Of a stretch of 64,000 bases of DNA, positions 7,107-31,350 are shown in pieces. The stretch covers positions 69,184 through 133,183 of the forward strand of contig JACQBQ010000010.1 of the NCBI GenBank assembly GCA_016201905.1, in the 5' to 3' direction. A model generated the notes under the pieces. It ran no database searches and was not told where the DNA came from. It worked only from the letters and a program-made list of their open reading frames with translations. The DNA is from Candidatus Melainabacteria bacterium. GTDB lineage: Bacteria; Cyanobacteriota; Vampirovibrionia; 2-02-FULL-35-15. Made by a program: the position numbers and the translations under genes. Position 1 is the stretch's first letter; every line of letters starts with the position of its first letter.

Positions 7107-7143
7107 TCCTCTAATTCTTCAGATTATACCTATATTATACACA

Positions 7144-7167
7144 AATGTTGACTTTTTATTCAACATT
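7144..7167. promoter_or_regulatory. Inverted repeat AATGTTGA-N8-TCAACATT in the divergent Rrf2 / A-type-carrier intergenic region; candidate Rrf2 operator
   Basis: Perfect 8-bp arms with an 8-nt spacer that overlap a TTGACT (-35-like) hexamer. Confidence 0.35.
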
Positions 7168-7240
7168 AATATTTCCCTTACTTTTAATGGGTATAATAGT
7201 GCTAGCCAAGGTTAATTTAAGCTTAATTAGAAGGTTTTAT

Positions 7241-7663
7241 ATGGAAACAAAAAAACAAAATAATCAAATTGTAAATGTGACTAGCACTGCTCTTGAAGAG
7301 CTTAAAAGGCTTATACAAAAAGAGACAGATAATCCAGATGGCGTCAGATTGAGCTTGCTTGCTGGTGGCTGTTCTGGACTTTCATATCACCTTCAGTTTG
7401 ACAAACTAAAAGAAAAAGATTATATCGATAATCTTGATGGATTGAAAATCATAATAGATCCAAAAAGTGCACTGTATATTAACGGAATTACACTTGATTA
7501 TCAAGGGGGGTTAAACGGAAGAGGTTTTGTTTTCTCAAATCCAAATGCTACAAAATCATGTGGCTGTGGCACTTCATTTTCAGTTGGTGACAAGGAAGTG
7601 ACACTTGAGTTTGTAAGCAGTAAAAAACCAATGAATGTTTGCCCAAGTAGTAATAATAAATAG
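7241..7663 (+). CDS. A-type Fe-S carrier (IscA/SufA/HesB family)
   Basis: HesB-like fold with the C...CGCG signature (KSCGCGTSF). The ORF track starts at 7145 through a hydrophobic artefact; the ATG at 7241 (METKKQ...) is the likely start. Confidence 0.7.
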   Translation: METKKQNNQIVNVTSTALEELKRLIQKETDNPDGVRLSLLAGGCSGLSYHLQFDKLKEKDYIDNLDGLKIIIDPKSALYINGITLDYQGGLNGRGFVFSNPNATKSCGCGTSFSVGDKEVTLEFVSSKKPMNVCPSSNNK

Positions 7664-11195: not shown

Positions 11196-11398
11196 CTTTA
11201 TTAACAGAAATCTAAAGTTCTTTTATTTGGATTGGTACATTCTTCAATTCACATCTTACAACTATTTTCCCATTTTCAACATTGAGCTCTCCTTTTAAGA
11301 ATTACTTGCCGAAAGAAAGGTTTAGACAGCAACATTCTTAAAGAAAGTGCTACTCCAGAGCTTTATCATTAATATGCCTAAATTTTTATTCCTGTTCC

Positions 11399-13174
11399 TT
11401 ATGTCAGACATAGTTTGTGGAATCTTCCGCTTTCTTTCGAATTAAGCCTGTTCCAGTTTCCTGATTCAATTATTTGCCCAGCTTCAATCACATAAATAAT
11501 ATCTGATTTTTGTACTGTTGATAATCTGTGAGTAATATGCAAAATTGTCATTGTTCCATGTAGCTCATTAATAGCATTCTGTATTCGTCTTTCATTCTCA
11601 ACATCAAGATGATTGGTTGCTTCATCTAAAACTAAAAGTGCTGGTCTACGTAATAGTGCACGTGCAAGAGCTAATCTTTGTCTTTCACCACTTGAAAGTA
11701 GAGCACCACGATCACCAATTACTGTATTAAGACCGTTCCGTAGTTTTGAAACAAAGTCATATGCCTGTGCTAACTTAAGAGCATTTTTAATTTCTTCTTC
11801 ACTTGCACCAGGACATGCCCAAAGAAGATTTGTGCGTATTGTGTCATGAAAAAGAAAAGTGTCCTGAGACACATAACCAATTTGATCTCGCCATGATTTC
11901 ATGAACTCTGAAACAAGAGGAAGATCATCAATAATAATTGATCCTTTTTGAGGAATAAGTAAACCAATTACAAGATCTGCTATTGTACTTTTTCCACTTC
12001 CAGAAGAGCCAACTATGCTAGTAGTCTCACCAAATTTTATTGTTAAATTAAGATTTAAAAATATTTTTTGTTCAGTATGTAAATCATAACCAAAGGAAAC
12101 ATCTTTCAATACTATTGAATTCTTGAAAATAATTTGTTTATTAGACTGTGCTATCAGTTTTGAGTTCTGCTCACAGAGTGAGATTAATTGAGTAACATTT
12201 TTAAATGCTGGTAACATAGCTAATATTTCATGGTAATTTTCTTGAATTGATAAAAATCTTGGAACAATACGTGTAAACAAGTAAAACAATAAGAGCATAT
12301 TGCTGGCAGGAGCATTAAGAACCTGAAAGGAAATAAAAACAAATATACTTAAAACTATTACAGTTCCTATTTCAAACATACATTTTATGCCAACTTGGTT
12401 CTTTATATGTTTAATATTTATGCCTGAAACTTTCTTGGCAGTCTCAGCAAAAATTGACAAATTGTGCTCTTCTGCATTATAACTTTTTGTAGTTTTAATG
12501 CTGCTGAAATGCTCTATACAGGCTGCATACAAGCCACTACTTTCAATCGAAAGCTCTTCTCCTGTCAAGCATGTATTTAACAACTTCTTTTTCTGGAGAA
12601 ATAAGAGTAATAATCCACCGGCAAAAGCAATCGTTGTCATAAGCAAAGAAAATTGAACAGATAGAATTAAATATACAAAAACAACAAATAAGCCAACTAC
12701 AAGCTGTAAAAGATGAACAGTACCTGAACCAACCCTCTCAATTTCCGTTGTCAGAGCATGAGTAAAATCTGATGCTTTACACCTTGAAGAGAAAAGCCAA
12801 TTTGAATTTAAAATTGCCTTATATAATTTTTGTCTTAAGTTAAGCACATAATCATGTTCTATGGAAAAACTTACTAGAGACTGATATTGATTAGTCAGGG
12901 CATGCAGAGTTATAACCATTACATAAATTCCAAGTACTGAAATCAAGTTAAAGTCAACACCTGAAGATCTAATGAAATCTATAATAAAACCAGTAACCCT
13001 ATCTGATGATGCTTCTTTAGGTCCTATACCAATAAGCTGTAGAATTGGCAGAAGAAGCATGAGCCCTACACCTTCAGTAAAACTCAGAAATACCATGAGT
13101 AATAATGCCAGAGCAATTTTTTTGTTCGCTGTTTTAAGAAGGCTTACTATATAATCAAAAAAAACTTTTTGCAT
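11399..13174 (-). CDS. ABC exporter (fused permease and ATPase); candidate RiPP/lasso peptide exporter (D protein)
   Basis: N-terminal 6-TM domain and a C-terminal NBD (GSSGSGKST, LSSGERQRLALARAL, LLVLDEAT). The ATG at 13174 is preferred over the TTG at 13198. Confidence 0.8.
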   Translation of the reverse strand: MQKVFFDYIVSLLKTANKKIALALLLMVFLSFTEGVGLMLLLPILQLIGIGPKEASSDRVTGFIIDFIRSSGVDFNLISVLGIYVMVITLHALTNQYQSLVSFSIEHDYVLNLRQKLYKAILNSNWLFSSRCKASDFTHALTTEIERVGSGTVHLLQLVVGLFVVFVYLILSVQFSLLMTTIAFAGGLLLLFLQKKKLLNTCLTGEELSIESSGLYAACIEHFSSIKTTKSYNAEEHNLSIFAETAKKVSGINIKHIKNQVGIKCMFEIGTVIVLSIFVFISFQVLNAPASNMLLLFYLFTRIVPRFLSIQENYHEILAMLPAFKNVTQLISLCEQNSKLIAQSNKQIIFKNSIVLKDVSFGYDLHTEQKIFLNLNLTIKFGETTSIVGSSGSGKSTIADLVIGLLIPQKGSIIIDDLPLVSEFMKSWRDQIGYVSQDTFLFHDTIRTNLLWACPGASEEEIKNALKLAQAYDFVSKLRNGLNTVIGDRGALLSSGERQRLALARALLRRPALLVLDEATNHLDVENERRIQNAINELHGTMTILHITHRLSTVQKSDIIYVIEAGQIIESGNWNRLNSKESGRFHKLCLT

Positions 13175-13188
13175 AATATAAAATTTCC

Positions 13189-14931
13189 CTAAGTACAAAC
13201 GGGGACTTGTTCTTTAGTTTCGTCTTGTTTTGAGCTAGGTTTCTTATTCTCACCAATTTTCCATAATCTTAACGTATGCACAAAGCCAGCATCATCAGAA
13301 AATAATTTAACTTTATCTGGAGACCAGTTCTGAACTTCACAACAGTGAGCCACGACCCTTGTTCCACTCTTTAGTTCCTTTAAAAGTTTATTTTTAAATA
13401 TAACAGGCTGGACATCTGATAAATAAAATATAACCACTGTTGCATCTGACAAATCAACTTCCATAGCGTCTTTTTGTACGAACTCAATAAGCTCGCTAAC
13501 TCCTTCTTTTTTTGCATTTACTCTTGCTTTGTCTAACAACTTAGAGTCTATATCTATGCCTACACCTCTTGCTCCAAACCTTTTTGCTGCTTCTACCAGT
13601 ATTCTTCCATCGCCACATCCTATATCGTAAATCACATCATTTGAATCAACCTGCCCAACTTCAAGTATATTTTTAATAATCTCATGCGGAGTAGCAACAA
13701 ATTCTGAAAGCTTGCTTCCACCAAATTTTCTAAAAAAGTACTTCCCAATAAGTCTAATTGGTCTAAAGAAATAATACAAAACTGATAAATCCTTTGGAAA
13801 TGTAACAGCCATTAAGTCATTCAGCGAAGGATAAAACATAAAGCAGAACAAATAGCGTAATTTTTGAAAAAGTGAGTCTCTTATCCATATCTGAAAGTCT
13901 CCAATATTATCAAACAAAGATGCACTAACTTTTCCATAAAAAATTCTGTTTTTTATTAATTCACCAAGGTGTTTAATATCCTTATCTGAATTAATAATTT
14001 TTAGTATATTATTCGGTAATTTAGCTTGCAGAAAATTATTTGCAAGATAAAGACCGAGAAGGAGCATTCTTTTACATTTAAGTTTCTTTGCTTTAGTTAA
14101 AAGCAAATCCCAATCCAGATTTTTTTTCGTGTCTATAATTTGAGCTATGTCACAAATAAGAGAGAAACTCTCCCATGCATCCTTTGCACCATTTAAGCAA
14201 AGCACAAGAAGTAGGTCTTCAAGATCAAGCACTGGCAATGGCTTATCAAAAATTGTTGTTTTTTCATAGTGCCACGACAAATTATCAAGTGTAGTCCCAA
14301 GTAAAAAATAAGAAGCCGTAATTCCCCAATGGATTTCCAGGTGTATACCATCCTCATTATCAAGCTCATAAGAATAGTCATACTTTAAGTAAGCATCTTC
14401 AGTATCTGGGTGTAATTTATGAAAAGGCGTGTATCCTTCTTGGATAAGTATCTCTTTCACTTTCAAAGCATCTCTCTCTAGGACAAGCAAATCAATATCT
14501 CCATACTCTCTTAAACCAAGGTTGTTATATAGAATTAAAGCTAAAATAGGACCCTTATAGGGCATTACAAAGATCTTGTTTTGCTCCAGCAGATTTAAAA
14601 CTTTAATTAATTCTTTAGTCAAGTACAGATTACTTTTAGTAGCTGCGCGAAAATGATTCTTTAATAATTCCATTACATTAAATGGAAGTAGCTCGACAGG
14701 AAGTGAATTAAGGTTCCTATATAACAAGGGAAACAATTTATGTGTTCTGGCAGTATTTATAATATAATCCCAGTCAAGGCTTTCATTTAAGAGATCTCTT
14801 AGTTTACTAATCATATTTGTATTTAAATTAGTTCTTGCACAAGACGTTATAAGTTCTATTTCAAGATTATAATTTTTCATAAAATCAATTTTTAAATTAA
14901 TTGCAGATAAGTTGCCTTTCCGCCTTATCAA
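13189..14931 (-). CDS. Fusion of a PF14907-like 'uncharacterised nucleotidyltransferase' and a class I SAM-dependent methyltransferase
   Basis: The N-terminal half has YKGPILALILY...GDIDLLV, typical of the nucleotidyltransferases found in kinase-type lasso clusters. The C-terminal ~170 aa has VIYDIGCGDGRILVEAAKRFGARGVGIDID (SAM motif I). The start may instead be the internal Met at 14880. Confidence 0.6.
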   Translation of the reverse strand: MIRRKGNLSAINLKIDFMKNYNLEIELITSCARTNLNTNMISKLRDLLNESLDWDYIINTARTHKLFPLLYRNLNSLPVELLPFNVMELLKNHFRAATKSNLYLTKELIKVLNLLEQNKIFVMPYKGPILALILYNNLGLREYGDIDLLVLERDALKVKEILIQEGYTPFHKLHPDTEDAYLKYDYSYELDNEDGIHLEIHWGITASYFLLGTTLDNLSWHYEKTTIFDKPLPVLDLEDLLLVLCLNGAKDAWESFSLICDIAQIIDTKKNLDWDLLLTKAKKLKCKRMLLLGLYLANNFLQAKLPNNILKIINSDKDIKHLGELIKNRIFYGKVSASLFDNIGDFQIWIRDSLFQKLRYLFCFMFYPSLNDLMAVTFPKDLSVLYYFFRPIRLIGKYFFRKFGGSKLSEFVATPHEIIKNILEVGQVDSNDVIYDIGCGDGRILVEAAKRFGARGVGIDIDSKLLDKARVNAKKEGVSELIEFVQKDAMEVDLSDATVVIFYLSDVQPVIFKNKLLKELKSGTRVVAHCCEVQNWSPDKVKLFSDDAGFVHTLRLWKIGENKKPSSKQDETKEQVPVCT

Positions 14932-15850
14932 TTTGCATGTCAGATAGTATTGCCAAACTTAGTTTTCCTGGCTCCAAAATGCTTGCCTCATAAGTTATTT
15001 TTTTTGTAACAGCAAACTCTGTGGTTTTATTAAGAATAGAAAATTGCCTTTTTAACATTTCAGGATTATAGAGATCTAATCGAAAAGAAGACTGTAACAA
15101 TTCAACAAGACTTTCTTGGGCTGACAATGGTTCAATTGAAACTTCTTTTACATTCTCAGATGGGTTTAAAAAGTAAATGTGAGAGAGCCTATACTCACCT
15201 GTAGAATATTGTCTTTGGGAAAGAGTTATCCTGCACTTTTCCGTCGGATCATCAATCTCAGCATCTGGATTTAAAAACTTTAATACTTCAGGCCAAAGCC
15301 CGACGTGTGGGGTACCACTACTTGTCCACACTTCATTATTTTTTAAAAAGATGGGGACTACATTGTCTGACAGTAAAGCTAATCCCTCTTTTATCAAGCC
15401 AGCTGTTATTGTAGATTTACCAAAACCACTTTTGCCAATAAATACAAGGACACCTTTTTTGCTTAGGACACTACTTGCATGAAGAGCCTCAATACCACTT
15501 AGATTTAAAGCTTTTGGAAGTACTTGTGTAAATAAAATATGCTTTACTGCTTCTGACTCATAATCATCAAAACACTTGTAATAAATGTACTTACTGTCAG
15601 GTGAAATTGCAAAATCTACTTTTTCATCAATAAAGTGAAGAACAAAGTAATCATTGTTTTTTTTTCCTGCTCTTAGACAGACATGACCATCTATCATGTG
15701 CCAGTCATGATACCAAAGTACATTGTCTGTAATATTTTCATGTTTTTTATCCCAGGGCAACACTCTTATATCAGGCTCTTTGAAGGTCTTCTCAAGCCCA
15801 GAAGCAATTTCCTCTTCCAGATCTATTGATAGCCCATAAACACTATACAT
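14897..15850 (-). CDS. HPr kinase/phosphorylase-like serine kinase (RiPP/lasso-associated HprK homolog)
   Basis: 317 aa with a P-loop GKSGFGKST resembling the HprK C-terminal domain. It sits immediately downstream of the candidate precursor. Confidence 0.6.
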   Translation of the reverse strand: MYSVYGLSIDLEEEIASGLEKTFKEPDIRVLPWDKKHENITDNVLWYHDWHMIDGHVCLRAGKKNNDYFVLHFIDEKVDFAISPDSKYIYYKCFDDYESEAVKHILFTQVLPKALNLSGIEALHASSVLSKKGVLVFIGKSGFGKSTITAGLIKEGLALLSDNVVPIFLKNNEVWTSSGTPHVGLWPEVLKFLNPDAEIDDPTEKCRITLSQRQYSTGEYRLSHIYFLNPSENVKEVSIEPLSAQESLVELLQSSFRLDLYNPEMLKRQFSILNKTTEFAVTKKITYEASILEPGKLSLAILSDMQIDKAERQLICN

Positions 15851-15861
15851 TTTTTTCTTAA

Positions 15862-16017
15862 TTAAGCGCTTCTTCTGGTAGTTTCTTTTCCCCTACTCCT
15901 TGTACCTTGAGTTAATTTTGCTATAGTTCCATACTTAATTAATACTGGTGTATTATATGGTTTTTTTTGGCCCTTGTTTAAGCTGGTATCTAAATTAGAT
16001 TTTGACTTGTTTTCCAT
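15862..16017 (-). CDS. Candidate lasso-peptide precursor (51 aa; not in the ORF track)
   Basis: Translation gives MENKSKSNLDTSLNKGQKKPYNTPVLIKYGTIAKLTQ|GTRSRGKETTRRSA. The leader matches YxxPxLx3Gx5Tx exactly. The core starts with Gly and has Glu at position 8. The ORF overlaps the 3' end of the cyclase gene by 23 nt in another frame. Confidence 0.5.
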   Translation of the reverse strand: MENKSKSNLDTSLNKGQKKPYNTPVLIKYGTIAKLTQGTRSRGKETTRRSA

Positions 16018-17962
16018 ATTTTTCAGTCCCCCTATGACTTATTATTCTACCAAAATTATTTCTTGCCCAATATTCAAGGCTAATAATCTGCCACATAATG
16101 TCGCTCCACGTAGAATCATCCAGGTTATTTGCATATTTTTGACAATATTGCTCATATGAATCTAAAACTTTTCCTTTATCTATTAACCCTATCTGATGTA
16201 AATATGAATCATTTAACAGTTCTTTCACTTCATTATGATTTTCATAAATAAGCAATTTATTAATTAATGAAGTAAAGTCAGCTTTATCCATTCTGTTTTT
16301 TATTTCAACTGGTAATAATTGTTTCATTGACTCTCTTAAAAAACCTTTTGGTTTCCATCCATACACAAGCATTTCTTCTGGTACACTTGACACAAACTCA
16401 ATTATTCTTCTATCACATAACGGGTGCCTAAGTTCAACTGTATTTGAACTGGCAGCCAATCTATCTAACAGCTCAAATCCACTGACTCTATAACCATTAA
16501 ATAATGAACTGTATGTTTCCTTGCGGCTTATTGTCTTAAATTTTTTGTTTTTAAGATACCAGGGTTCTTCTCTTAGCCTTTGAAAAAGATTTTCTCTGTG
16601 AGGCTGGTTAATCCAGTCATATGTTTTTATCGGACGAATAGTCCTATAAAGTTTTTTAAACCACCTTGGTAGCATTGAACGAAGTGAATTAAGCGACATT
16701 GACAAAACAAGTTTCAGCACAAGTGGATAAGAAGCTAGTTGATATTGTGAGTATGCATCAATAAATGCTAATCCTTGAGCAAATTTTCCTGTAAACAAAA
16801 GATCTGTTGCAAGATACATTGATGCATCAATGTAGTCATCTCCCCCTTCACCAGTAAAAATCACTTTTCTTCCTTCATTTTTTGCCAGGTCATAAACAGG
16901 TTTAGTTAGAATTATCCCTTCAACACTCCATAGTGCCTGACTTGCGTGTATAGCATCAGGTACTTCCCAGAGAGGTTTTGGTGCATGCGAATTAATCCGA
17001 TTTGATTTAATCTTATATTTTTTTTGTACTATATTTATAAAATCACTTTCATCAGCAGGTTTTGTATCAAAGACTGCAGAATACCCGGATGTTTCTACAT
17101 TGGTTTTCTTTTTTGATTTTAAATCATCAATTAATGCAAGTACCGAAGAAGAATCCAGCCCACCACTAAGTGTTATTCCAGGTTCACTATTTAATCTGAG
17201 CTTGGAAATCATTGATTTGGTAAAAACTTCCATAAAAGCTTCAGTATAATCTTCAATTTTTTTAAACTCATTTGTATAATTCAGATTGATATCCCAGTAT
17301 TGTCTAATTTTAAAGTCATCTTTTTTTACTGTCATGCAATGAGCTGGTCTAAGTTTGAAAATATTTTTAAATTCTGTTCTTTCTGAATTTTCAAAGTTGT
17401 TGGTTAAATAAAGTGCCATAGAATCTAAATCTGGCTCCTTTGGTATATCAGGATGTTTAAATAAAGGAATAGCGTCAGATGCAAATGCCAAAAACCTTTC
17501 ACACTTATAAAAGTAAAATGGCCTTACCCCTATAATATCTCTTGCACAAAAGAGCTGATTGTTTTTACTATCCCATATTGCAAAGGCAAAGTCACCTATT
17601 ATTTTTTTAAGACAGGCTTCTTTCCAGAGGAAATAAGAGTAAAGAACAATTGAAGCATCAGTTATAAGCTCTGCTTTTATTCCACATGACTTTAATTCTG
17701 AGCTCAGTTCATTTCTATTATCGATTCTTCCATCCATAACAAGTGTCAATCCTGTGTTTTTATCATGAAATGGTTGTCTTTCTATTTCTTGTTCAGTTGT
17801 AGTCCAGAAGGCTCTATGCGCCAGTCCAACAACCCCATTAACCCAAACATCTCTTGCATTCTGACCTCTATCTGAAAGGATTTTATCGTCTATAACTTTG
17901 TTAAGGACATTTATATCAAACTGTTCTCTGTCAAAATAAAAGATTCCTGTTATTGCACTCAT
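15995..17962 (-). CDS. Asparagine-synthetase-like protein; candidate lasso cyclase (C protein)
   Basis: 655 aa with the PP-loop SGGLDSS. The N-terminus is MSAITGI rather than the AsnB MCGI glutaminase nucleophile, as expected for an isopeptide-forming cyclase rather than a true AsnB. Confidence 0.7.
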   Translation of the reverse strand: MSAITGIFYFDREQFDINVLNKVIDDKILSDRGQNARDVWVNGVVGLAHRAFWTTTEQEIERQPFHDKNTGLTLVMDGRIDNRNELSSELKSCGIKAELITDASIVLYSYFLWKEACLKKIIGDFAFAIWDSKNNQLFCARDIIGVRPFYFYKCERFLAFASDAIPLFKHPDIPKEPDLDSMALYLTNNFENSERTEFKNIFKLRPAHCMTVKKDDFKIRQYWDINLNYTNEFKKIEDYTEAFMEVFTKSMISKLRLNSEPGITLSGGLDSSSVLALIDDLKSKKKTNVETSGYSAVFDTKPADESDFINIVQKKYKIKSNRINSHAPKPLWEVPDAIHASQALWSVEGIILTKPVYDLAKNEGRKVIFTGEGGDDYIDASMYLATDLLFTGKFAQGLAFIDAYSQYQLASYPLVLKLVLSMSLNSLRSMLPRWFKKLYRTIRPIKTYDWINQPHRENLFQRLREEPWYLKNKKFKTISRKETYSSLFNGYRVSGFELLDRLAASSNTVELRHPLCDRRIIEFVSSVPEEMLVYGWKPKGFLRESMKQLLPVEIKNRMDKADFTSLINKLLIYENHNEVKELLNDSYLHQIGLIDKGKVLDSYEQYCQKYANNLDDSTWSDIMWQIISLEYWARNNFGRIISHRGTEKYGKQVKI

Positions 17963-18912
17963 TGCTTTTCCAACTTTACCAAGCCTATATTGATTTGCTC
18001 ATTTAAGAAAGAAAGTATATCACCCTCACACTCTTCTTTTTTTATATCATATTCATTTAAGAGCATTTGGGTTATTTCTTTGATTTTAATTGTTTTTTTA
18101 GCTTGATTTAAAATATTTATTCCGATCTGGTCTGTTGCATAGCAAGATGAATCTTTAAAATTATAAATTAAAATCTGATTGCCCAGAGATCGCATGAAGT
18201 AGTCTCCAGTTGTTTTTATCAAAGAGTCCTGCGATAAATGAAAATGTTTATTTAATTTTCTTAAGCTAGTATTTATTTTTTTTCTGTGAATTGGCTTGTA
18301 AAGAGGTCTTGCTCTAAACCAGCCAGTTAAAACAGTTCTTGTAACTTTGCCGTATACCTTGTTTACTCTGTGCTCTAAATAAGGCGCTACTCTAAAAATC
18401 ACAGCATCACCAAAACCATTATTAATAACTTCTTTGACCAATTCTTTTGTTCTTGAATTACGAATTTGAATGGCTCCACCTATGTAAAAATCTGTACTTA
18501 GATTAATACTGATTGATATCATTCTGTTATTTGTTAAGTCGTCATGCCATTTGTCATATTGTTCTTTGTCCGGGATTTTACTGTAAACCCTGCCAGTAAA
18601 ACATCCGATTTTTTTACAGCCTGTGATTTGTTCTATAAACTTAAATAACTTTTCATCATTCATCAAGAAGTGAAGAAAGCCTAATATTTTTTCATCTTCA
18701 AATTTATAACCAACTGCTTCATCATCTCCAACTTTATATTTATCTTCCAAGAACTTCTCTTTCCTTAAGCAGTTCTGAATTAAGGACAGGAGATTAGGCT
18801 CTAAAAATCTTTTTAACTTTAAGCAATGATTTTCACTAAACTCACTTCGCAGTATTTCAAAATCAGACTCTATTTCTGAGATTAAAATACCTGATTTTGT
18901 TAATTTAACCAT
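17959..18912 (-). CDS. Prolyl-4-hydroxylase-like 2OG/Fe(II) oxygenase fused to a C-terminal PqqD-like RRE domain (paralog 1 of 5)
   Basis: WHDD...GGAIQI...FGDAVIFR...EHRV...GKVTRTVLTGWF fits the HxD...H...R 2OG-FeII_Oxy_3 pattern. The C-terminal ~85 aa (..NILNQAKKTIKIKEITQMLLNEYDIKKEECEGDILSFLNEQINIGLVK) is PqqD-like. Confidence 0.6.
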   Translation of the reverse strand: MVKLTKSGILISEIESDFEILRSEFSENHCLKLKRFLEPNLLSLIQNCLRKEKFLEDKYKVGDDEAVGYKFEDEKILGFLHFLMNDEKLFKFIEQITGCKKIGCFTGRVYSKIPDKEQYDKWHDDLTNNRMISISINLSTDFYIGGAIQIRNSRTKELVKEVINNGFGDAVIFRVAPYLEHRVNKVYGKVTRTVLTGWFRARPLYKPIHRKKINTSLRKLNKHFHLSQDSLIKTTGDYFMRSLGNQILIYNFKDSSCYATDQIGINILNQAKKTIKIKEITQMLLNEYDIKKEECEGDILSFLNEQINIGLVKLEKQ

Positions 18913-18923
18913 TTTAAATTGTT

Positions 18924-19892
18924 TTATCTCGTCATTTCAGTGCATACAAGCCTATTTATCTTCATTTGTCTTATTAGATTTCTTAAATCTATTTCACATT
19001 CTTTTCCACCTACATCATATTCTTTTAAAATTAAATTTCTTATTTCAAAAAACGATTTTGGTCTGTCAAGTATTTTAAGGATTTTTCCACCAATCGAGTC
19101 CAATCCAAAACATACTCCAGTCACAGGATTAAATACAAGCACTTTATCTTTTGAATCTTGAAAGAATAAGTTCTGACTTCTCGACAATACTATATCAGTA
19201 TTATATTTTTTAGCTTCGCTCAGATTCCTATCAAATGTAATACTTCTTGAACAGTCTTCAAAAACAGGTTTGTAGATTGGTTTTGATCTAAACCATCCCG
19301 CAAAAAATGTTCTGCTTGCTTTTCCAGTTACCTCAGTAAGTCTATGTACTAACTTTGGAGATATTCTAAAAATAACTGCATCACCAAAACCAGTATTTGC
19401 AACCTCCTTTACGACTTTTCCTATGTTTATATCTTTGAGCTGAAGAATTCCTCCTTCATAAGCTTTAGTACTTAGATTTATACTCATTGCAATCATCCTA
19501 TTATCGACCAAGTCATTGTGCCAAGCATCTCTATGACCAGTGCCTGGGCTCATACGGCAAATCCTGCCTGTAAAAGAACCAATCTTACAGCAACCTGTAA
19601 CTTTCTCAATAACCTGAAAGAGTTTTTTGTCATTCACAAAAAACCTAAGCAAGCATTCAAGATTTTTATCTTTTAGCCTGCACATTGGATTGTCCTGATT
19701 GCTTGCAGGATAATTCACAGTAAAAAAATCATCACATTCATCAATTTTTAATTGTATAAGTCCAAGTAAATCCTTCTCAAGGAAATTAGTTAATTTTATA
19801 CAATGCTTTTTATCAAATTCTTTTTTCAAAAGATTAAGATCTTTTTCATTTGCTGTTAAGTTAAAACCTGAACTGGTAATTTGGATATTCAT
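18924..19892 (-). CDS. 2OG/Fe(II) oxygenase-RRE fusion (paralog 2)
   Basis: AWHNDLVDNRM, GGILQL, FGDAVIFRISPKLVHRLTEV and GKASRTFFAGWF, with a C-terminal PqqD-like segment. Confidence 0.6.
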   Translation of the reverse strand: MNIQITSSGFNLTANEKDLNLLKKEFDKKHCIKLTNFLEKDLLGLIQLKIDECDDFFTVNYPASNQDNPMCRLKDKNLECLLRFFVNDKKLFQVIEKVTGCCKIGSFTGRICRMSPGTGHRDAWHNDLVDNRMIAMSINLSTKAYEGGILQLKDINIGKVVKEVANTGFGDAVIFRISPKLVHRLTEVTGKASRTFFAGWFRSKPIYKPVFEDCSRSITFDRNLSEAKKYNTDIVLSRSQNLFFQDSKDKVLVFNPVTGVCFGLDSIGGKILKILDRPKSFFEIRNLILKEYDVGGKECEIDLRNLIRQMKINRLVCTEMTR

Positions 19893-19907
19893 ATCAATAC
19901 TTAAAAA

Positions 19908-20873
19908 TTATTCAATACTTACAAGCCCATTCTCTTCCATCTCTTTAAGAAGATATAACAAATCTTTTTCACATTGCTCAGTTTCTATATCAAATTCTTT
20001 TAAAAGCACATTTTTAACTTCACTGACAGTAAATGGCTTGTCAATGACTTGCAATACTCTTTCTCCAACAGCATTCAAGGCAAAACAGCTAGTACTAAAT
20101 GGATTAAACACATGAAGTCGTTCATTAAAATATTTGGAAAATAAATTCCTGTTCTTTTTTACAGAGGCAGATAACTGTACTTGTGGCAATTTTTCGTAGC
20201 TATTGTCATTTGTGCGATTTTTGGCAACTGGCTTGAACACTGGTTTATAAAAAGGTTCCGAAAAAAACCAGCCTGCATAAGCAGTTCTATGAGCTTTTCC
20301 TTTTACTTCAGTTACTCTATGATCCAGGTAATTTGAAATCCTAAATATTACTGCATCTCCAAAGCCAGTATTCTTGACTTCCTGAATAATTTTGTCCGTA
20401 GTAAAATCCTTAATTTGCAGGCTTCCACCTTCGTACACTTCAGTACTTAGATTCACACTCATTGCAATCATCCTATTGTCCACATTGTCATCATGCCATG
20501 CATCAAGGGTGTCAGCATCCGGGCTTAATCGGTATATTCTCCCGCTAAAGCAGCCTATTTTCTTTGAAGAAGTGATTTTTTCAATAAGCTCAAAAAACTT
20601 TGGATCATTTGTCAAGAATTCCAAGAGTCCTATTGCCTGTTTATCCTTAAGTCTAAGTTCTTTTGAATCAAGACCTATCTTTTTCTTATAACTTTTTGAG
20701 TAAAAGTCTCCAATTTTTATTTTCTCTTGAATTAATCCTAGAATTTCTTCATCAAGTAATTTTGGTAGCTTAACCCAGTGATTTTCACTAAAGTGCTTGA
20801 GCAAATCATCTATGTCTTTTTCTGTATAAGAACATTTTATTCCTTCTCTTTTTAATTGAATTATTGACTGCAT
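19908..20873 (-). CDS. 2OG/Fe(II) oxygenase-RRE fusion (paralog 3)
   Basis: AWHDDNVDNRM, GGSLQI, FGDAVIFRISNYLDHRVTEV and GKAHRTAYAGWF, with a C-terminal PqqD-like segment. Confidence 0.6.
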   Translation of the reverse strand: MQSIIQLKREGIKCSYTEKDIDDLLKHFSENHWVKLPKLLDEEILGLIQEKIKIGDFYSKSYKKKIGLDSKELRLKDKQAIGLLEFLTNDPKFFELIEKITSSKKIGCFSGRIYRLSPDADTLDAWHDDNVDNRMIAMSVNLSTEVYEGGSLQIKDFTTDKIIQEVKNTGFGDAVIFRISNYLDHRVTEVKGKAHRTAYAGWFFSEPFYKPVFKPVAKNRTNDNSYEKLPQVQLSASVKKNRNLFSKYFNERLHVFNPFSTSCFALNAVGERVLQVIDKPFTVSEVKNVLLKEFDIETEQCEKDLLYLLKEMEENGLVSIE

Positions 20874-20888
20874 ATATTTTTGATTTTT

Positions 20889-21824
20889 TTAGTTTTTAAT
20901 TGTAAGTAATTTATTTACCTCCATTTCATTGAACAATGAAATTAAATCCTTTTCAAATATTTCTTCACCAATATCATATTCACTAGTAACTATTTTTTTT
21001 ATCTCGCTAAACATTATTGGTTTTTTAACTATTTCCCAGAGCCTTGTTCCCAGGTTCTCAAGACCAAATCCTGTTTCTTCAACTGGATTAAATATAAAGA
21101 GTTTGTTCTCAATATATTCTTCCATTAACCCTTTCTCTAACATTATGATTGAACCACTTTTAATCTTTGATTTTTTATTATTAACTAATAAGGTTTGATT
21201 ATTATCAAAGGATTTTAAGTCGATATGTGAACTAAGCCAACCTGCAAGTGCAATCTTTGGGATATTTCCTTCGACTTTAGTTAGCATATGTTGATAGTCA
21301 GTTGAAATAGAAAATATAATAGCATCTCCGGGTACTGTATTTTTTATCTCTTGAATTATTTTTTTTGTTTTTTTATCTCTAATTAGCAGTACTCCACCAG
21401 AATATATATCAGAACTCAGATTTATGCTTATGGTAAGTACACGATGCCATACAACATCAGAATGCCACATGTCATAGTGATCTTCACCAGGAATCATTTT
21501 GTAAACTCTTCCGCTAAAATACCTGATTTTTTTTAATCCTGTTATTTGTTCAATTGCTTTTAAAAATTTTTCATCATTAACTATTTCATGAAGTATCTGG
21601 TTCATTTCAGGATCTTTCATGACTAAATCTTTGCCAGCATCCTTGTGATCAAGTGTTATAAAATCAGCTTTATTAATTCTTTCTTGAATATCCTTTAAAA
21701 GGTCAGAAACTATAAGATTTGAAAGTTTAATATGTAAGTTTTTTTTAAATTCTTCTTGAAGTTTCTGAAGTTGAGTAGAACCTTCTGAGACATCGGTACC
21801 ATTTTTTGTAATTTGAATTTTCAT
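20889..21824 (-). CDS. 2OG/Fe(II) oxygenase-RRE fusion (paralog 4, most divergent)
   Basis: MWHSDVVWHRV, GGVLLI, PGDAIIFSISTDYQHMLTKV and a PqqD-like C-terminus. Lys replaces the downstream Arg. Confidence 0.55.
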   Translation of the reverse strand: MKIQITKNGTDVSEGSTQLQKLQEEFKKNLHIKLSNLIVSDLLKDIQERINKADFITLDHKDAGKDLVMKDPEMNQILHEIVNDEKFLKAIEQITGLKKIRYFSGRVYKMIPGEDHYDMWHSDVVWHRVLTISINLSSDIYSGGVLLIRDKKTKKIIQEIKNTVPGDAIIFSISTDYQHMLTKVEGNIPKIALAGWLSSHIDLKSFDNNQTLLVNNKKSKIKSGSIIMLEKGLMEEYIENKLFIFNPVEETGFGLENLGTRLWEIVKKPIMFSEIKKIVTSEYDIGEEIFEKDLISLFNEMEVNKLLTIKN

Positions 21825-22798
21825 AAGACTAAAGCAGCTTTTTTAATTGTTATTAGTTTGTTTTCTTGAAATTCATTAAGAATCGCAAATAAATCTTTTT
21901 TACAACTTTCTCTACTTATCTCGTATGTATTTATGAAGTGATTTTCAATATCTCTAAATGCTTGTGGTTTTTCAAGAAGATTTAATATATCAGCTCCAAC
22001 TTGATTTGTACTGTAACATGCATCATGTTCAAGATTCAAAACCATTGTTTCATTTTCAAAAGCTCTTGCAAAAGTGCTGTCATTTAAAGTAAGTATTGAG
22101 TTGTTATCAACAGAAAAAGTTGATTTTTTTTTCTCTTTACTTTTTTGTTCTATGTTACTTTCAAACTCTGGCTTAAAAGCAGGTTCTGATCGGAACCAGC
22201 CAGGAAAAGCAGTTTTAGCAACAGTTCCTGTTACTTCTGTAACCATATGCTCAAGATTCGGAGCAATTCTAAAAATTACACAGTCACCATATCCAATATT
22301 TGCTATTTCGTGTAATATCTCTTTCGTATTTCTATTTCTTATTTTAAGTATTCCACCGGAATAAATTCCCTTACTCAAGTTTATGCTTATGGATGCAAGT
22401 TGATTTTCACTGATATCCTGATGCCAATTATCATAATGACCTAAATTAGGAACAAGGCTATAAACACCACCGCTAAAGATTCGAATCTTTTCACAACCTG
22501 TTATTTGCTCTACCAGCTCAAATAAAAACGGATCGTTCATTAAAAACTCAAGGAGTGTGTTTACTGTTTCATCATTTAAACGATAATCAACTGCATCTGA
22601 CTCTGCAAGTTTATACTTATCTTCATAGAAACCCACATCATCCATTTTTTCCTGAACAAGCTCTAAAAGTTTGGGCTCTAAAAACTGTGGAAGCACTATA
22701 CAGTGTTGCCTATCGTAGAGTTTTTGCAAAGAAAATAAGTCTTCTTTAGTACCCAAAAACTTTGTACTAGTTTTCGTTGCTTGAATTATTGGTTTCAT
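21821..22798 (-). CDS. 2OG/Fe(II) oxygenase-RRE fusion (paralog 5)
   Basis: NWHQDISENQL, GGILKI, YGDCVIFRIAPNLEHMVTEV and GTVAKTAFPGWF, with a C-terminal PqqD-like segment. Confidence 0.6.
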   Translation of the reverse strand: MKPIIQATKTSTKFLGTKEDLFSLQKLYDRQHCIVLPQFLEPKLLELVQEKMDDVGFYEDKYKLAESDAVDYRLNDETVNTLLEFLMNDPFLFELVEQITGCEKIRIFSGGVYSLVPNLGHYDNWHQDISENQLASISINLSKGIYSGGILKIRNRNTKEILHEIANIGYGDCVIFRIAPNLEHMVTEVTGTVAKTAFPGWFRSEPAFKPEFESNIEQKSKEKKKSTFSVDNNSILTLNDSTFARAFENETMVLNLEHDACYSTNQVGADILNLLEKPQAFRDIENHFINTYEISRESCKKDLFAILNEFQENKLITIKKAALVL

Positions 22799-24315
22799 TG
22801 TTTTATCCTATCCAGACTTTCTAGAAGTTCTGAAAAAATATTTATTACTTCCTCAGGAAAAACCTTAACTGATTCTAGTAATTCACTCAATGCTTGCTTA
22901 ACTTTTTTTTCTTTTAAATAAAGCAGTGCTAGGTGAATATAAATCATAGTACTGTAGTGTCCGCCTGCAATACCTATTTTATAGCTACTGATTGCTTTTG
23001 TAGTAAGATTTTTCTTTGCATAAAGTTTGGCAAGTTTTACATGCACTTCAAAATAATCAGGATCGGTTAAAAAATTTTCCTTGGCTCTGCTTAATATAAA
23101 GGCATTTAAGGATCTGTACCCTTTAAGAGATAATTTTAGTGACTTTTCAAATAAATTTATTGCTTCATTAGTCTTATTTTGCTTTTTTTGTATATCTCCA
23201 AGAGCATGATAAGCATCTGGAAGGTTTTCATTTAATCTTATGGAATTGCAAATAAAGTCCTCTGCCTCTTTCCAGTTTTTCTTTTTCATTGCAATTAGTC
23301 CTAAGATTAAATGTGCATTAGCGTCTTCAGGATCTAGTGAAAGAACTTTATTTACTTCGATTTCTGCCTTGCGGAAAAGCTTATCTTCAAAATATACATA
23401 TGCCAGATTATTGTAAGCAGTCCTATATGAAGGATCTATATTTAGTGCCTGCTTATAATAACTTTGGCTTTCTTGTACTTTGTTCATATTTTGGTTTAAA
23501 AGCGCAAGGTGGAAGCAAGGGACTGGAGAGGCAGGCATAAGATCTTTAGCTTCAATATATTTTGCCTCAGCTAAAAGAAACTTATCATCGTTTGCCAATA
23601 TAGATGCTTCTTTTACCATTTCCATCATTCTTAAGGATGAGCTGTTGCCATTTTTTATTCTAAGAGCAAGTTCATCTCCAAGATATTTCCATTTCAATGG
23701 CGTATATCCACCTTCTACAGAATATGCAATAGTAATAATATCTGAATGTATTTTTTTTAGATTTATCCTATTTAAAAGTTCATTGGGCCAACACCAGGGA
23801 ATCTCAGAATGTTTATCAGTCTTGCCATACGACACGTGTGGAATAATCATATAGTCAACATCAATGTCCAGTAAAACATCTTCAGTAATCTCTGGTATAG
23901 AATCCAAAGTGCATATCCTGAGAGGTTTATTGAGAACAAAAGCAGAAATTTCATCTTTATCTATTTTTATTTTTTTAGAACTTTCAGGATAGCGTCTGAT
24001 TATTCTTTTCAAGTGTTGTAATATAGCTTTCTTATTTTTTTGTGATTCCATGCTCTCATCCGGTACAATCCAAAAGACTTCTTTTAAAATATCTTCTTCA
24101 AGCGCTCTGCATATAAAATTGGCAATTGTAATTTGAGAACCTTTTTTTATAAACCACATATCGTGATGCGCATCGATATGAACCAATCTTCTATTTTTTA
24201 CTCCGGATTCTTTCCACACATAGTATGAACGATCATGATTTTCCATGATATGAACACTAGCACTACGCTGGTTTGCATATTCTGATTTTATTTCTTTTTT
24301 GGAAGCAGTACTCAA
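22795..24315 (-). CDS. Two-domain protein: N-terminal ureohydrolase (arginase/deacetylase)-fold-like domain and C-terminal TPR repeats
   Basis: H27, D48-A-H50-H-D52 (a DAHxD-like motif) and D150-I-D152-V-D154, with arginase-like spacing (about 21 and about 102 residues). The C-terminal ~280 aa are TPR-like (..AYNNLAYVYFEDKLFRKAE..). TTG start with an AAGGAG RBS. Confidence 0.45.
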   Translation of the reverse strand: MSTASKKEIKSEYANQRSASVHIMENHDRSYYVWKESGVKNRRLVHIDAHHDMWFIKKGSQITIANFICRALEEDILKEVFWIVPDESMESQKNKKAILQHLKRIIRRYPESSKKIKIDKDEISAFVLNKPLRICTLDSIPEITEDVLLDIDVDYMIIPHVSYGKTDKHSEIPWCWPNELLNRINLKKIHSDIITIAYSVEGGYTPLKWKYLGDELALRIKNGNSSSLRMMEMVKEASILANDDKFLLAEAKYIEAKDLMPASPVPCFHLALLNQNMNKVQESQSYYKQALNIDPSYRTAYNNLAYVYFEDKLFRKAEIEVNKVLSLDPEDANAHLILGLIAMKKKNWKEAEDFICNSIRLNENLPDAYHALGDIQKKQNKTNEAINLFEKSLKLSLKGYRSLNAFILSRAKENFLTDPDYFEVHVKLAKLYAKKNLTTKAISSYKIGIAGGHYSTMIYIHLALLYLKEKKVKQALSELLESVKVFPEEVINIFSELLESLDRIKQ

Positions 24316-24362: not shown

Positions 24363-24653
24363 TTAGGCATTTTTCACTTCGACTAAGCCTGATTCTTCTA
24401 AATTTTTTACAAGTTCTATTAAATCGCATTCAAGTTGCCTGGCATCTACATCATACAATTCAAGTATGTAACTTTTTACTTCTTTTAATTTCTTAGGTGT
24501 TTGAATTATATTCCATACTTCTGTACCAAGATTATCCAAGCCATAATAAACGCCATCTTTATGATTTAATATAACTGACTCTCCAGATAAATCACAAGAG
24601 AGCTGATTACTGGAAACAGTTAAAATTGAATCTTCAGAAATTATGTTTTGCAT
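24363..24653 (-). CDS. Standalone PqqD-family protein (RiPP recognition element; lasso B1-like)
   Basis: 96 aa: ..ILNHKDGVYYGLDNLGTEVWNIIQTPKKLKEVKSYILELYDVDARQLECDLIELVKNLEESGLV. Confidence 0.7.
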   Translation of the reverse strand: MQNIISEDSILTVSSNQLSCDLSGESVILNHKDGVYYGLDNLGTEVWNIIQTPKKLKEVKSYILELYDVDARQLECDLIELVKNLEESGLVEVKNA

Positions 24654-24733: not shown

Positions 24734-26170
24734 CTACTCAATCAATCTTTCATTAAGCAGGTAAGAGGCTATACATTTAGATAGTGCTTCATAGCCATAT
24801 CTATTAAAATGCCCCCAATCAAGTGGTCCATGTACTAGTTTTTTACTTGCAGCAAGTTTTATAGATGGGCGAGTATCTAGAAATTTCACCGCTAAGCTAT
24901 TAGATATTTGACTAATATGATTTGCTATTAAGTTACTCCTAGCTGTTACATAATATGGAGTATAAACACTTCCTTCTTTAATGGAAAAATTGCTATAAGA
25001 ACCATATTTTATATTAGTTTTTAAAGAGTAAGAAGAAAAAAGAGATGGTATGTAAACCACTATAATTTTCGAATTTGGGAAGTGGTTTACTAAAAAGTTC
25101 AGACTATATTTCAATATTTTAAACGATGTTTCTAATTCATTTTTAGTTAAGCCCCGACCAGCTAAATCATCCACATTAAGACTAATCGCATATTTTACAT
25201 CATCACTTAATTTATTAACTTTTTCACTATTTATAAAAGTACAGTCTGGTAGTGAGAAAATCTTACCATTTACCTCCACTACGTTATGAGATAAGCTGTT
25301 TTCACATTTTGGAATTTTAAATTCCTCTGTTATTTCTTTTTTCATTATGTTTGAGAGATTAAATCTAAACAAATTAATAAAAAAACTGGTTGCTATAAAA
25401 TTATTGTTTGTAATAGATTTTTCATATTTAATTTTTTCAAGAAGGGAACGACTAAAAGCCAGACTGTCTGCAGTTATATTAACCCTTTCCTTATTGACTA
25501 AATTATCCTCTAAATCATTCCCTTCAAAAAAATAAAAAAGTATTACTTCTGGAGCTTCTATATGAAACCTTGATCTCAGCATTTCTATACTATAAACAAT
25601 ATTTTTTACAGCAGTAGGGCTTCCAGCACCACCAACCCCAAAAGAAATAACATCTTTTTTCAAGAGGTCATGCAAAACATGTGCTGAGTAATATTTTGGA
25701 TTTTTATTTTTATCCACTTCAAAGAACCAATCACCCTCACCATCTGCATAAGAGTCGCCAATGATGGCTATATATTCTTTAGGAATTAAATGTTTCTTTG
25801 AGGATTGGCATAATATACTGGAAGGATGCATAAGATGATCCTGCAATTTAAGTGAAAAGAATGGTAATGATAATGGAAATAAAAGTTCAAGAATGAATAC
25901 AGCTAGTAAAAGGGAAGAGACACCTAACCCAACTCTTACAGAAAATTCATAAAAGAATTTTCTTTTCTTATTTAGAACAATATTCAATCCACAAATAAGA
26001 ACCATTAGGTCAAATGAGTAAATTATTAGTTTTGTAAAAACAGATTTTATTTTTCCATCTTCATACAACAAGCTATTTATAGTAGATTCATTTAATAAGA
26101 AGGAAACAATGATTAGCATCAATCCTATTAGAAGCTCGATTTTTCTTTGATTTTTCTTTATTAATTCCAT
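24734..26170 (-). CDS. Membrane-anchored SGNH/GDSL-like hydrolase
   Basis: 478 aa with about 3 N-terminal TM helices, a block I motif IAIIGDSYADGEG and a block III motif FFEGNDL. Confidence 0.45.
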   Translation of the reverse strand: MELIKKNQRKIELLIGLMLIIVSFLLNESTINSLLYEDGKIKSVFTKLIIYSFDLMVLICGLNIVLNKKRKFFYEFSVRVGLGVSSLLLAVFILELLFPLSLPFFSLKLQDHLMHPSSILCQSSKKHLIPKEYIAIIGDSYADGEGDWFFEVDKNKNPKYYSAHVLHDLLKKDVISFGVGGAGSPTAVKNIVYSIEMLRSRFHIEAPEVILFYFFEGNDLEDNLVNKERVNITADSLAFSRSLLEKIKYEKSITNNNFIATSFFINLFRFNLSNIMKKEITEEFKIPKCENSLSHNVVEVNGKIFSLPDCTFINSEKVNKLSDDVKYAISLNVDDLAGRGLTKNELETSFKILKYSLNFLVNHFPNSKIIVVYIPSLFSSYSLKTNIKYGSYSNFSIKEGSVYTPYYVTARSNLIANHISQISNSLAVKFLDTRPSIKLAASKKLVHGPLDWGHFNRYGYEALSKCIASYLLNERLIE

Positions 26171-26360: not shown

Positions 26361-28028
26361 TTATAGTTTGTAAAAAAAGTAAGGAGTATCTTCTATGTGT
26401 TTCCAGCCAAATCTGGAGGAATAACCAGGTGCTCTTCCAGCAATTAAAATCTTTGCACCTGCATTTTTAAATACATTTAAAACACTTGTCTTCAAAGTAT
26501 TATCAGCTATCCAAAAATTACTAATATCTTCATCAGAGGGTATCTCAGCTATAATATGTAACTTTGCTAATCGTGCCCAGTAATAATCATCATAAATCCC
26601 TATAACACCAACTTTTTCACCTTCTTTAATGCCTGCTTTTTGTAACCCTTTAGCTACACGTAAATTTACTTTTAATTCCTGAGCTAACGGACGATTTTCA
26701 AGTAAATCTTTTGAAAGGATACCCCCCAGAACCATAGAAAACATTGAAACCAATACTAAAGATTTTTTTACTGACTGCACTTCTTCTACCAGTGGTAATT
26801 TTAAAGCAGAAAATAAACCAAGCAAAAAAATCACCACATAAGCACCAAGATACCTAAACTCTACATGTACTAAAGAATACATAAGCATCACAAATATAGG
26901 GACTGTAAGCATTACCCAGTTTTCAAGCAAATCTTTAATTACTTTCAATTTTCTTCCACTTAAAACCAAAAGAGCCAGATAAGAAGTAAGCAAAACAATT
27001 TGCATTAAAAAAAACAGATAAAAATATTCTCTTAAATTAATTAATATTGCTTTTATTTGTCCAATTAAATCAAAATAAGGTTTACTCCCCTGACACCAAT
27101 AGGAAGTATCATATACAAGCGGATAAGTCACATTAAAAGGAGTAGAATATTCGAAAACTGTAGGATCATTAAATAGAACTCTAAGCGGATGAGTAAGGTT
27201 ACTACAGCCCGGAAAACCATTTTCAAAACATTCACATACATTCCTATCAGCGTACCAGTGATAGTTTAATTTTCCTGTTTCACCATAAGTAAAATATCCT
27301 CTTGATTTAGATAGAGAAAAAACAAATGGACCTGCTATCAGCAAAAAACAAGCTAAAGCCACTACAGATTTTAAAAACTTATATTTTTTGTCTGGTACTG
27401 CAAAAAAACTTAAAATAATAAAAACAAATGCAATAGGAAACATAGCTTCTTTTGTAAGGTAACCCAGTCCAAGGACTAATCCAAGGAGTACAAAATTAAC
27501 CCAGTTTTTCAATCCTACTTTTATTTTAAGTAATAGTCCACTGGCTAAATACACAAACCCAGATAGAAGCATATCTGGAGTTACTCCTGATATGGTTATT
27601 AAGTTTGTTGAAGACCAGATAAAAAGACTATACCCAAGACACATCCACATCCAGACTTCTTCCTCTTGTTTATCTTCAATAAATCTTCGGAAAAAGAATT
27701 CAAAACAAAATAAAGCAAAAGCATAAGTAAAAAAGTTTACTATATGGACAACTATAATTTCTGAATACAAACCAGGCTTCAGAAGAAAAAGAAAAAAACC
27801 CTGGATAATAGCATAAATAGGATTCCAGACCCCGTTAACAAGTGCCCCAAAATCACCACGAAAAACTGCATCCCCAATATCCAGAAATGGTATGCTGTCA
27901 GATTCAATAAAATATCTTAAAAGCCAGGTATGAATAAGTCCAATAAAAATAGCTAAGAATAAAAAAAATGCTCTAATTTGTTTAATTGAAAACTTATAAA
28001 ACATAATAGTAATAAGGTGTATCATCAA
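26361..28028 (-). CDS. Polytopic membrane protein, GT-C-fold glycosyltransferase-like (PMT/ArnT-like), paralog 1 of 8
   Basis: 555 aa with about 11-13 TM helices, a first-loop motif IPFLDIGDAVF and a conserved ~130-aa C-terminal soluble domain (..YWARLAKLHIIAEIP..). Confidence 0.45.
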   Translation of the reverse strand: MMIHLITIMFYKFSIKQIRAFFLFLAIFIGLIHTWLLRYFIESDSIPFLDIGDAVFRGDFGALVNGVWNPIYAIIQGFFLFLLKPGLYSEIIVVHIVNFFTYAFALFCFEFFFRRFIEDKQEEEVWMWMCLGYSLFIWSSTNLITISGVTPDMLLSGFVYLASGLLLKIKVGLKNWVNFVLLGLVLGLGYLTKEAMFPIAFVFIILSFFAVPDKKYKFLKSVVALACFLLIAGPFVFSLSKSRGYFTYGETGKLNYHWYADRNVCECFENGFPGCSNLTHPLRVLFNDPTVFEYSTPFNVTYPLVYDTSYWCQGSKPYFDLIGQIKAILINLREYFYLFFLMQIVLLTSYLALLVLSGRKLKVIKDLLENWVMLTVPIFVMLMYSLVHVEFRYLGAYVVIFLLGLFSALKLPLVEEVQSVKKSLVLVSMFSMVLGGILSKDLLENRPLAQELKVNLRVAKGLQKAGIKEGEKVGVIGIYDDYYWARLAKLHIIAEIPSDEDISNFWIADNTLKTSVLNVFKNAGAKILIAGRAPGYSSRFGWKHIEDTPYFFYKL

Positions 28029-31349: not shown

Positions 31350-31350
31350 T

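Follow-up and report, generated by a model that had tools for sequence, protein, structure and literature searches.

We analysed a 64,000-nucleotide stretch of contig JACQBQ010000010.1 (hereafter the window; contig positions 69,184 to 133,183) from an uncultured Candidatus Melainabacteria metagenome-assembled genome (MAG). It carries five tandem genes that each encode an N-terminal 2-oxoglutarate (2OG)/Fe(II) oxygenase domain and a C-terminal PqqD-like recognition element (RRE) of peptides that are made on ribosomes and modified after translation (RiPPs), and these genes lie inside a lasso peptide operon. The products of the five genes are probably peptide hydroxylases that depend on the leader, belong to a kinase-type lasso pathway and each act at one site. 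This interpretation draws on the domain identities of the proteins, their catalytic residues, their membership of the operon, the recurrence of the oxygenase in lasso clusters and the orthology of the copies. The array and its two domains had been recognized in an initial annotation made from the sequence; the lasso context, the multi-phylum oxygenase subfamily, the recurrence of the fusion and the arginase-like protein encoded upstream of the array are added here.

Five diverged copies with an intact oxygenase active site and a fused RRE

The five open reading frames (ORFs), named wA to wE in the order of transcription, lie on the minus strand at exactly the positions given in the initial annotation (17959-22798) and encode proteins of 311-325 amino acids. 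The proteins of the locus are deposited as MBI3589986-MBI3589991. In pairwise BLASTP comparisons the copies are 34-46% identical (E 1e-58 to 1e-102), close to the roughly 30-45% first estimated, and these E values place their similarity far beyond chance. The most diverged copy is wB.

All five proteins match the Pfam family 2OG-FeII_Oxy_3 (PF13640) around residues 115-203 (E 4e-10 to 2e-5) and PqqD (PF05402) around residues 250-316 (E 5e-11 to 4e-3). The motif WH.D ... GG ... GD.(I/V)IF ... H ... (R/K) is found in every copy, and the HxD...H iron triad and the basic 2OG-binding residue are invariant across the five copies and 46 relatives. Three copies (wC, wD and wE) have Arg as this basic residue and the other two (wA and wB) have Lys. 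All five also keep the Gly/Asn framework that is invariant in the oxygenase family. The best sequence match of the family profile in the Protein Data Bank (PDB) is human OGFOD1, and the alignment pairs the HxD, distal His and Arg of the two. The N-terminal domain is thus placed by PF13640 and OGFOD1 inside the 2OG oxygenase superfamily, in agreement with its first description as a domain of the prolyl-4-hydroxylase (P4H)/PKHD type with an HxD...GG...GD...H...(K/R) pattern.

The AlphaFold2 model of wC, the copy chosen for modelling, is confident (pLDDT 92, pTM 0.88). Its oxygenase domain has the double-stranded beta-helix fold, and the best structural matches of this domain are Tpa1, OGFOD1, PHD2 and P4H. 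The C-terminal domain of the model has the winged-helix arrangement of three strands followed by three helices (strands 245-249, 252-257 and 262-266; helices 268-276, 283-293 and 298-314, assigned with DSSP). We built a profile from the six RREs of the window, namely the five fused domains and one stand-alone protein. The top match of this profile was TbiB1 (E 9.5e-14), followed by 9x90, labelled "lasso peptide biosynthesis PqqD family chaperone" (E 2.5e-12), and then by TfuB1 and PqqD. The PqqD-like RRE predicted at the C-terminus in the initial annotation therefore holds, and its closest matches include B1 proteins of lasso pathways.

The array is part of a kinase-type lasso peptide operon

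The genes from B1 through the ABC transporter are tightly packed and are joined by 4-nt overlaps or by gaps of 11-47 nt (Table 1); wA overlaps each of its neighbours by 4 nt. The first 23 nt of the precursor ORF lie within the 3' end of the cyclase gene (15995-16017), and the kinase and nucleotidyltransferase genes share a 35-nt overlap. These two overlaps suggest translational coupling along the operon. A scan for promoters and terminators gave counts that were not above those of shuffled sequence.

Table 1 Genes of the lasso operon, listed from B1 to the ABC exporter, which is the order of transcription
Feature	Positions	Strand	Evidence and remarks
Stand-alone RRE, lasso B1	24363-24653	minus	Pfam PqqD E 4.5e-12; NCBIfam lasso_PqqD_Bac E 1.4e-16; 47% identical to L006 B1
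Peptide-arginase-like domain with TPR repeats	22795-24315	minus	NF052474, OspR match
Five oxygenase-RRE genes	17959-22798	minus	PF13640 + PqqD
wA, oxygenase-RRE paralog	21821-22798	minus	325 aa; PF13640 E 2.2e-5, 25.8 bits; PqqD E 2.1e-9
wB, oxygenase-RRE paralog	20889-21824	minus	311 aa; PF13640 E 4.1e-7; PqqD E 4e-3, 17.9 bits
wC, oxygenase-RRE paralog	19908-20873	minus	321 aa; modelled copy
wD, oxygenase-RRE paralog	18924-19892	minus	322 aa; PF13640 E 4.8e-8; PqqD E 3.6e-8
wE, oxygenase-RRE paralog	17959-18912	minus	317 aa; PF13640 E 4.3e-10; PqqD E 2.9e-7
Lasso macrolactam cyclase (C), Asn-synthetase homolog	15995-17962	minus	Pfam Asn_synthase + GATase_7; NF033535 E 4e-125
Precursor peptide (A), 51 aa	15862-16017	minus	ORF and sequence
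HprK-related kinase (K)	14897-15850	minus	Pfam Hpr_kinase_C E 8e-5 (weak); NCBIfam HprK_rel_A E 9e-7; P-loop GKSGFGKST
NTP_transf_5 nucleotidyltransferase-methyltransferase fusion	13189-14931	minus	Pfam NTP_transf_5 E 8e-60 + methyltransferase domains
ABC exporter (D)	11399-13198	minus	Pfam ABC_membrane + ABC_tran

The cluster is a kinase-type lasso peptide cluster of the paeninodin/pseudomycoidin-like kind. The pair of genes that marks this subclass, an HprK-related kinase and an NTP_transf_5 protein, is present. The kinase matches are weak but the gene occupies the conserved position in the order cyclase, precursor, kinase (C-A-K), which the window shares with the related loci L005, L009, L026 and L028. 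The best NCBIfam match of the cyclase is the lasso isopeptide cyclase family NF033535 (418.9 bits, against a model cutoff of 525). The methyltransferase domain of the nucleotidyltransferase fusion has an archaeal protein-lysine N-methyltransferase as its best NCBIfam match (E 1.7e-35).

The precursor consists of the leader MENKSKSNLDTSLNKGQKKPYNTPVLIKYGTIAKLTQ followed by the predicted core GTRSRGKETTRRSA. It reads ...PYNTPVL...KLTQ/GTRSRGKE... (the slash marks the predicted leader-core boundary) and has the features of a lasso precursor: a leader motif YNTPVL that fits YxxPxL, Thr at position -2, Gly1 and Glu8. Ring closure is predicted between G1 and E8 in a core of 14 residues. This core contains four Arg. 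It has no Pro, Asp or Asn, as had been noted from the start for the single precursor adjoining the array, and the identical protein is named "lasso RiPP family leader peptide-containing protein" at NCBI. A motif scan of the whole window returned only one plausible precursor, and a homolog search with the precursor retrieved only the precursor itself. The metagenomic locus L005 encodes a near-identical core, GTRSRGKETRRRKA, behind the same leader motif, and the two cores share five basic positions (R3, R5, K7, R11 and R12). A Mg-chelatase-like AAA N-terminus and the lasso cyclase are joined in the first gene of L005 (3-2081), probably as a chimera made during assembly in which the region upstream of the cyclase was lost.

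HprK-like kinases characterised to date phosphorylate a C-terminal Ser, the terminal residue of paeninodin/pseudomycoidin-type cores. The core of the window ends in -RRSA and that of L005 in -RRKA, so a kinase acceptor is not evident.

The oxygenase subfamily recurs in lasso clusters and four of the five copies have orthologs in sister arrays

A HMMER search of 1.84 billion representative proteins recovered 1,378 relatives of the oxygenase at E ≤ 1e-3, of which 644 also pass E ≤ 1e-30. A C-terminal RRE is present in 40 of the best 150 representatives. The oxygenase family is therefore small, and the RRE fusion is a recurrent minority form of it. Among GTDB representative genomes this oxygenase was located at 16 loci, and at 10 of them a lasso cyclase, an HprK-like kinase or both are encoded no more than 10 kb away. 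The hosts belong to Acidobacteriota, Planctomycetia, Actinomycetes and Flavobacteriales and mostly carry single unfused copies. Metagenomic loci show the same lasso association, with one to three unfused copies beside separate PqqD genes. Other fusions (P0045, P0098 and P0002/P0003) have the architectures PqqD-2OG, with an N-terminal RRE, NTP_transf_5-2OG and 2OG-2OG-PqqD. These alternative fusions tie the oxygenase subfamily to lasso components independently.

Two more arrays of five oxygenase domains lie directly upstream of a cyclase, in the low-GC metagenomic clusters L006-L008 and L031. L006 also shares the B1 and arginase/TPR genes with the window; it carries a gene for the B2 transglutaminase-like peptidase between B1 and a second PqqD gene. 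A metagenome scan with the cyclase alignment for further sister clusters returned one irrelevant short contig.

In a bootstrapped neighbor-joining tree, four of the five window copies pair with specific members of these sister arrays, and the four orthogroups are shared with L006-L008. The last copy before the cyclase in every array is wE. Its ortholog m5_221 (bootstrap 100) has no RRE, and its ortholog in L031 is fused. The copy wD groups with the C-terminal halves of double-oxygenase proteins of 545 and 548 amino acids (bootstrap 98.5), wC has an ortholog in the sister arrays with a support of 97, and wB has the orthologs m4_324 and P0007 (bootstrap 100). No clear ortholog of wA was found in the sister clusters in this tree. 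The orthologs of four of the five copies imply that the duplications predate the split of these lineages and that the copies have been kept apart since. The copies are therefore old and probably non-redundant.

A proposed pathway with one hydroxylation site per enzyme

We propose that each protein combines a Tpa1/OGFOD1-like oxygenase, which would bind iron through HxD...H and 2OG through Arg or Lys, with a lasso-B1-type RRE. The RRE would dock on the YxxPxL motif in the leader of the 51-residue precursor, and docking would hold the still-linear core at the active site. Each oxygenase would hydroxylate a different core position, giving up to five hydroxyls on 14 residues, and would do so before the leader is cut off and the ring closes between G1 and E8. 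We predict from sequence that every RRE binds the leader, that the reaction is a hydroxylation and that each enzyme has a site of its own; the choice of modified residues is likewise a prediction.

The layout would be a covalent version of its closest characterised counterpart, the cooperation between CanE and CanB1 in the biosynthesis of canucin A by Streptomyces canus, which likewise involves Fe/2OG tailoring of a lasso peptide (PMC9266682, PMC8498205). The substrate of CanE is the linear precursor with its leader, not the folded lasso, and the RRE protein CanB1 strongly enhances the reaction in trans (PMC9266682). CanE is a single stand-alone enzyme that relies on B1 in trans and performs one beta-hydroxylation, of a C-terminal Asp, whereas the enzymes of the window have a fused RRE, occur in five copies and face a core without Asp.

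The likeliest target residues, by inference, are Lys, Arg or Arg-derived ornithine. We favor basic side chains because the core lacks Pro, Asp and Asn, because conserved Arg and Lys dominate it, because the operon encodes arginase-like and lysine-methyltransferase-like proteins, because related clusters contain PRMT-like genes and because CorC provides a precedent. CorC, from the pathway of the graspetide corallotide, is a PF13640 enzyme that hydroxylates Lys at its delta-carbon and so forms 5-hydroxylysine at five positions of a single precursor (PMC13097080). This one enzyme lacks an RRE and works iteratively through five repeats once macrocyclisation has taken place, in contrast to the five RRE-bearing enzymes that would act here on one short core of a lasso pathway. 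The numbers of basic residues and of enzymes, five each, may agree by coincidence.

In a more elaborate scheme, which is conceivable but which we regard as rather doubtful, the product would be a densely modified, polycationic lasso. Some of the four Arg would be converted to ornithine by the arginase-like enzyme, five tethered hydroxylases would then place one hydroxyl on each basic side chain (R3, R5, K7, R11 and R12), and methylation, phosphorylation or glycosylation of the new hydroxyls or amines by the kinase and the nucleotidyltransferase/methyltransferase would follow. If this scheme is true, a collagen-like hydroxylation code would exist on a 14-residue RiPP. We found no report of ornithine, or of hydroxylated Lys, Arg or ornithine, in lasso peptides.

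Comparison with described systems

Lasso pathways with 2OG hydroxylases and RiPP enzymes with RRE fusions are each already known. Our literature search found no RRE-fused oxygenase of the P4H/PKHD type (PF13640), no array of such enzymes and no multiple hydroxylation of a lasso core. This agrees with the first impression that no RiPP system with an array of RRE-fused P4H-like oxygenases had been described. The reviews consulted list the single hydroxylation by CanE as the enzymatically characterised lasso hydroxylation; the enzyme that would form the 7-hydroxy-Trp of RES-701 has only been proposed. Tpa1/OGFOD1/Ofd1 and PHD2/PPHD are only 14-20% identical to the window oxygenases; they lack an RRE and their substrates are Pro residues of folded proteins, whereas the predicted core here has no Pro.

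The paeninodin and pseudomycoidin clusters share with the window the HprK-like kinase, NTP_transf_5, split B1, cyclase, ABC exporter and YxxPxL motif (PMC6993621, PMC8498205, PMC13381572). Their described members have neither 2OG oxygenases nor an arginase-like protein, and their hosts are Bacillota and Proteobacteria, unlike the Melainabacteria host of this operon.

Alternative explanations

Several observations weigh against the reading of five leader-dependent hydroxylases that act at one site each. The Pfam cutoff of 27 bits for PF13640 is passed by four of the five copies (31.3-40.9 bits) and wA, with 25.8 bits, falls slightly short of it; the PqqD cutoff of 23.4 bits is also passed by four copies and wB, with 17.9 bits, falls short. 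Prolyl hydroxylases are the closest structural relatives, although Pro is absent from the core. We compared the cores encoded beside single-copy relatives of the oxygenase and found no obvious common residue that could be the target. The operon within the window also has no gene for B2 (see below). Further precursors may lie beyond the window, since the contig is 141 kb long and the window 64 kb. Hydroxylation is also not the only reaction of 2OG oxygenases, which can desaturate, epimerise and form rings as well.

The five oxygenases could each serve a different precursor encoded elsewhere in the genome, with each RRE diverged for its own leader, which had been the second of the two readings offered in the initial annotation. 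The RRE domains are only 27-34% identical to one another, and RREs have been found to tell similar leaders apart in co-resident lasso and LPP pathways (PMC13381572). The contig extends well past the window within a whole MAG, and in L026 two cyclase-precursor-kinase sets are present. Against this stand the single plausible precursor in the window, the translational coupling of the five genes to one cyclase and one precursor, and the occurrence of the same five-domain set before a single cyclase in two other clusters. We therefore consider separate precursors unlikely and favor several sites on one core, the first of the two readings, because of the conserved orthogroups in the sister clusters and the one precursor in the window; this preference is not a proof.

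Some or all of the domains could perform other 2OG chemistry, such as desaturation, epimerisation, oxidative cross-linking or oxidation of Arg or ornithine side chains. Among the structural neighbours are, with lower Z scores, non-hydroxylating 2OG enzymes such as the carbocyclase SnoK and AsqJ, and also the Lys/Orn-acting HalB/HalD family, and the core offers none of the classical targets Pro, Asp and Asn. The best matches are nevertheless bona fide protein hydroxylases (Tpa1, OGFOD1, PHD2 and P4H), and the characterised RiPP precedents CanE and CorC are hydroxylases (PMC9266682, PMC13097080), so that we judge such chemistry improbable. Halogenation was considered and rejected: every copy has HxD instead of HxG/A, which favors a hydroxylase over a halogenase. 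Finally, part of the array could be catalytically silent and provide extra leader-binding chaperones or scaffolds. NCBI labels three of the five copies as PqqD family chaperones or proteins ("PqqD family peptide modification chaperone"), and wA and wB have the lowest Pfam scores. This explanation is very improbable given that the triad, the 2OG-binding basic residue and the Gly/Asn framework are intact in all five copies and that the wE ortholog in a sister cluster dropped the RRE and kept the oxygenase.

The B2 peptidase was not found in the 64-kb window by tblastn with the B2 of L006 or by Pfam annotation of the other ORFs. A hidden Markov model of four B2 sequences, run on the ORFs of the window in all six frames, produced no E value better than 0.31, and B2 was also not found in about 5.6 kb past the left edge of the window. 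Without B2 in the window the pathway may be incomplete or unusual, and B2 could be encoded elsewhere in the genome. In the case of pseudomycoidin, the lasso formed without a B2 peptidase (PMC6993621). We considered the oxygenase array as a substitute for B2 and rejected this idea because the sister cluster L006 carries both B2 and the array, and also because C-alpha hydroxylation would be expected to leave no free Gly1 amine for cyclisation.

An arginase-like protein and other neighboring genes

Immediately upstream of the array lies a gene for a peptide-arginase-like N-terminal domain fused to TPR repeats. The motifs ENH, DAHHD and LDIDVDY of this domain are near-invariant in 29 homologs and correspond to metal ligands of the PF12640 peptide arginases (PMC12703449). 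OspR (8brp) is the only PDB sequence match of the domain (E 1.7e-7) and the top Foldseek match of its AlphaFold2 model (pLDDT 93; TM about 0.55), so the domain has both the metal motifs and the ureohydrolase fold of a peptide arginase. The match to the curated peptide arginase model NF052474 (E 3.5e-12) reaches 46.4 bits, far below the cutoff of 350. A Pfam search at E 0.01 gave no PF12640 match for the window protein; some of its homologs have one. The domain thus resembles OspR, FlmR and OhkR (PF12640) in its ENH, DxHxD and LDIDxDY motifs but is very diverged from them and is fused to TPR repeats.

The arginase/TPR fusion recurs in the lasso clusters L006, L026 and L028, and in the Acidobacteriota kinase-type clusters L026 and L028 it occurs as a fusion or as a split pair. 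On the basis of these sequence features the protein may convert core Arg to ornithine. The reported substrate types of peptide arginases do not include lasso precursors (PMC12703449). The related cluster L026 (Vicinamibacterales) has its two cyclase-precursor-kinase sets at 1513-4526 and 11250-14120, about 8 kb apart. Between them lie the arginase-like/TPR gene, NTP_transf_5 and genes for PrmA/PRMT-like methyltransferases, with no oxygenase of this family.

Upstream of B1, the region 26361-44865 encodes eight paralogs of a polytopic membrane protein of about 555 amino acids with no Pfam match. In L006, two copies upstream of B1 share 33-52% identity with them, and a homolog in L003 bears the annotation PMT_2. 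One paralog (40430-41695, with a fragment at 41954-42061) seems to be truncated or frameshifted. Four GDSL/SGNH-like proteins are encoded between the membrane paralogs (24734-26170, 34462-35532, 39073-40455 and 42091-43038). On the other side, the lasso operon is followed after 3 kb by a SUF iron-sulfur assembly operon (996-7663; SufB/D, a SufC-like ABC ATPase, cysteine desulfurase, a NifU-like protein and an Rrf2 regulator), which is probably unrelated housekeeping.

Implications for lasso peptide diversity

Roughly 650-1,400 representative clusters make up the oxygenase subfamily delineated here, which is unstudied and whose occurrence follows that of kinase-type lasso clusters in uncultured phyla. 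The arginase-like/TPR protein is a second recurrent accessory of these clusters and hints at ornithine-containing lasso peptides. Five non-redundant leader-tethered hydroxylases would predict a new level of oxidative decoration of lasso peptides. They would also supply a toolkit of regiospecific peptide hydroxylases that share the portable YxxPxL tag, which would be useful for peptide engineering.

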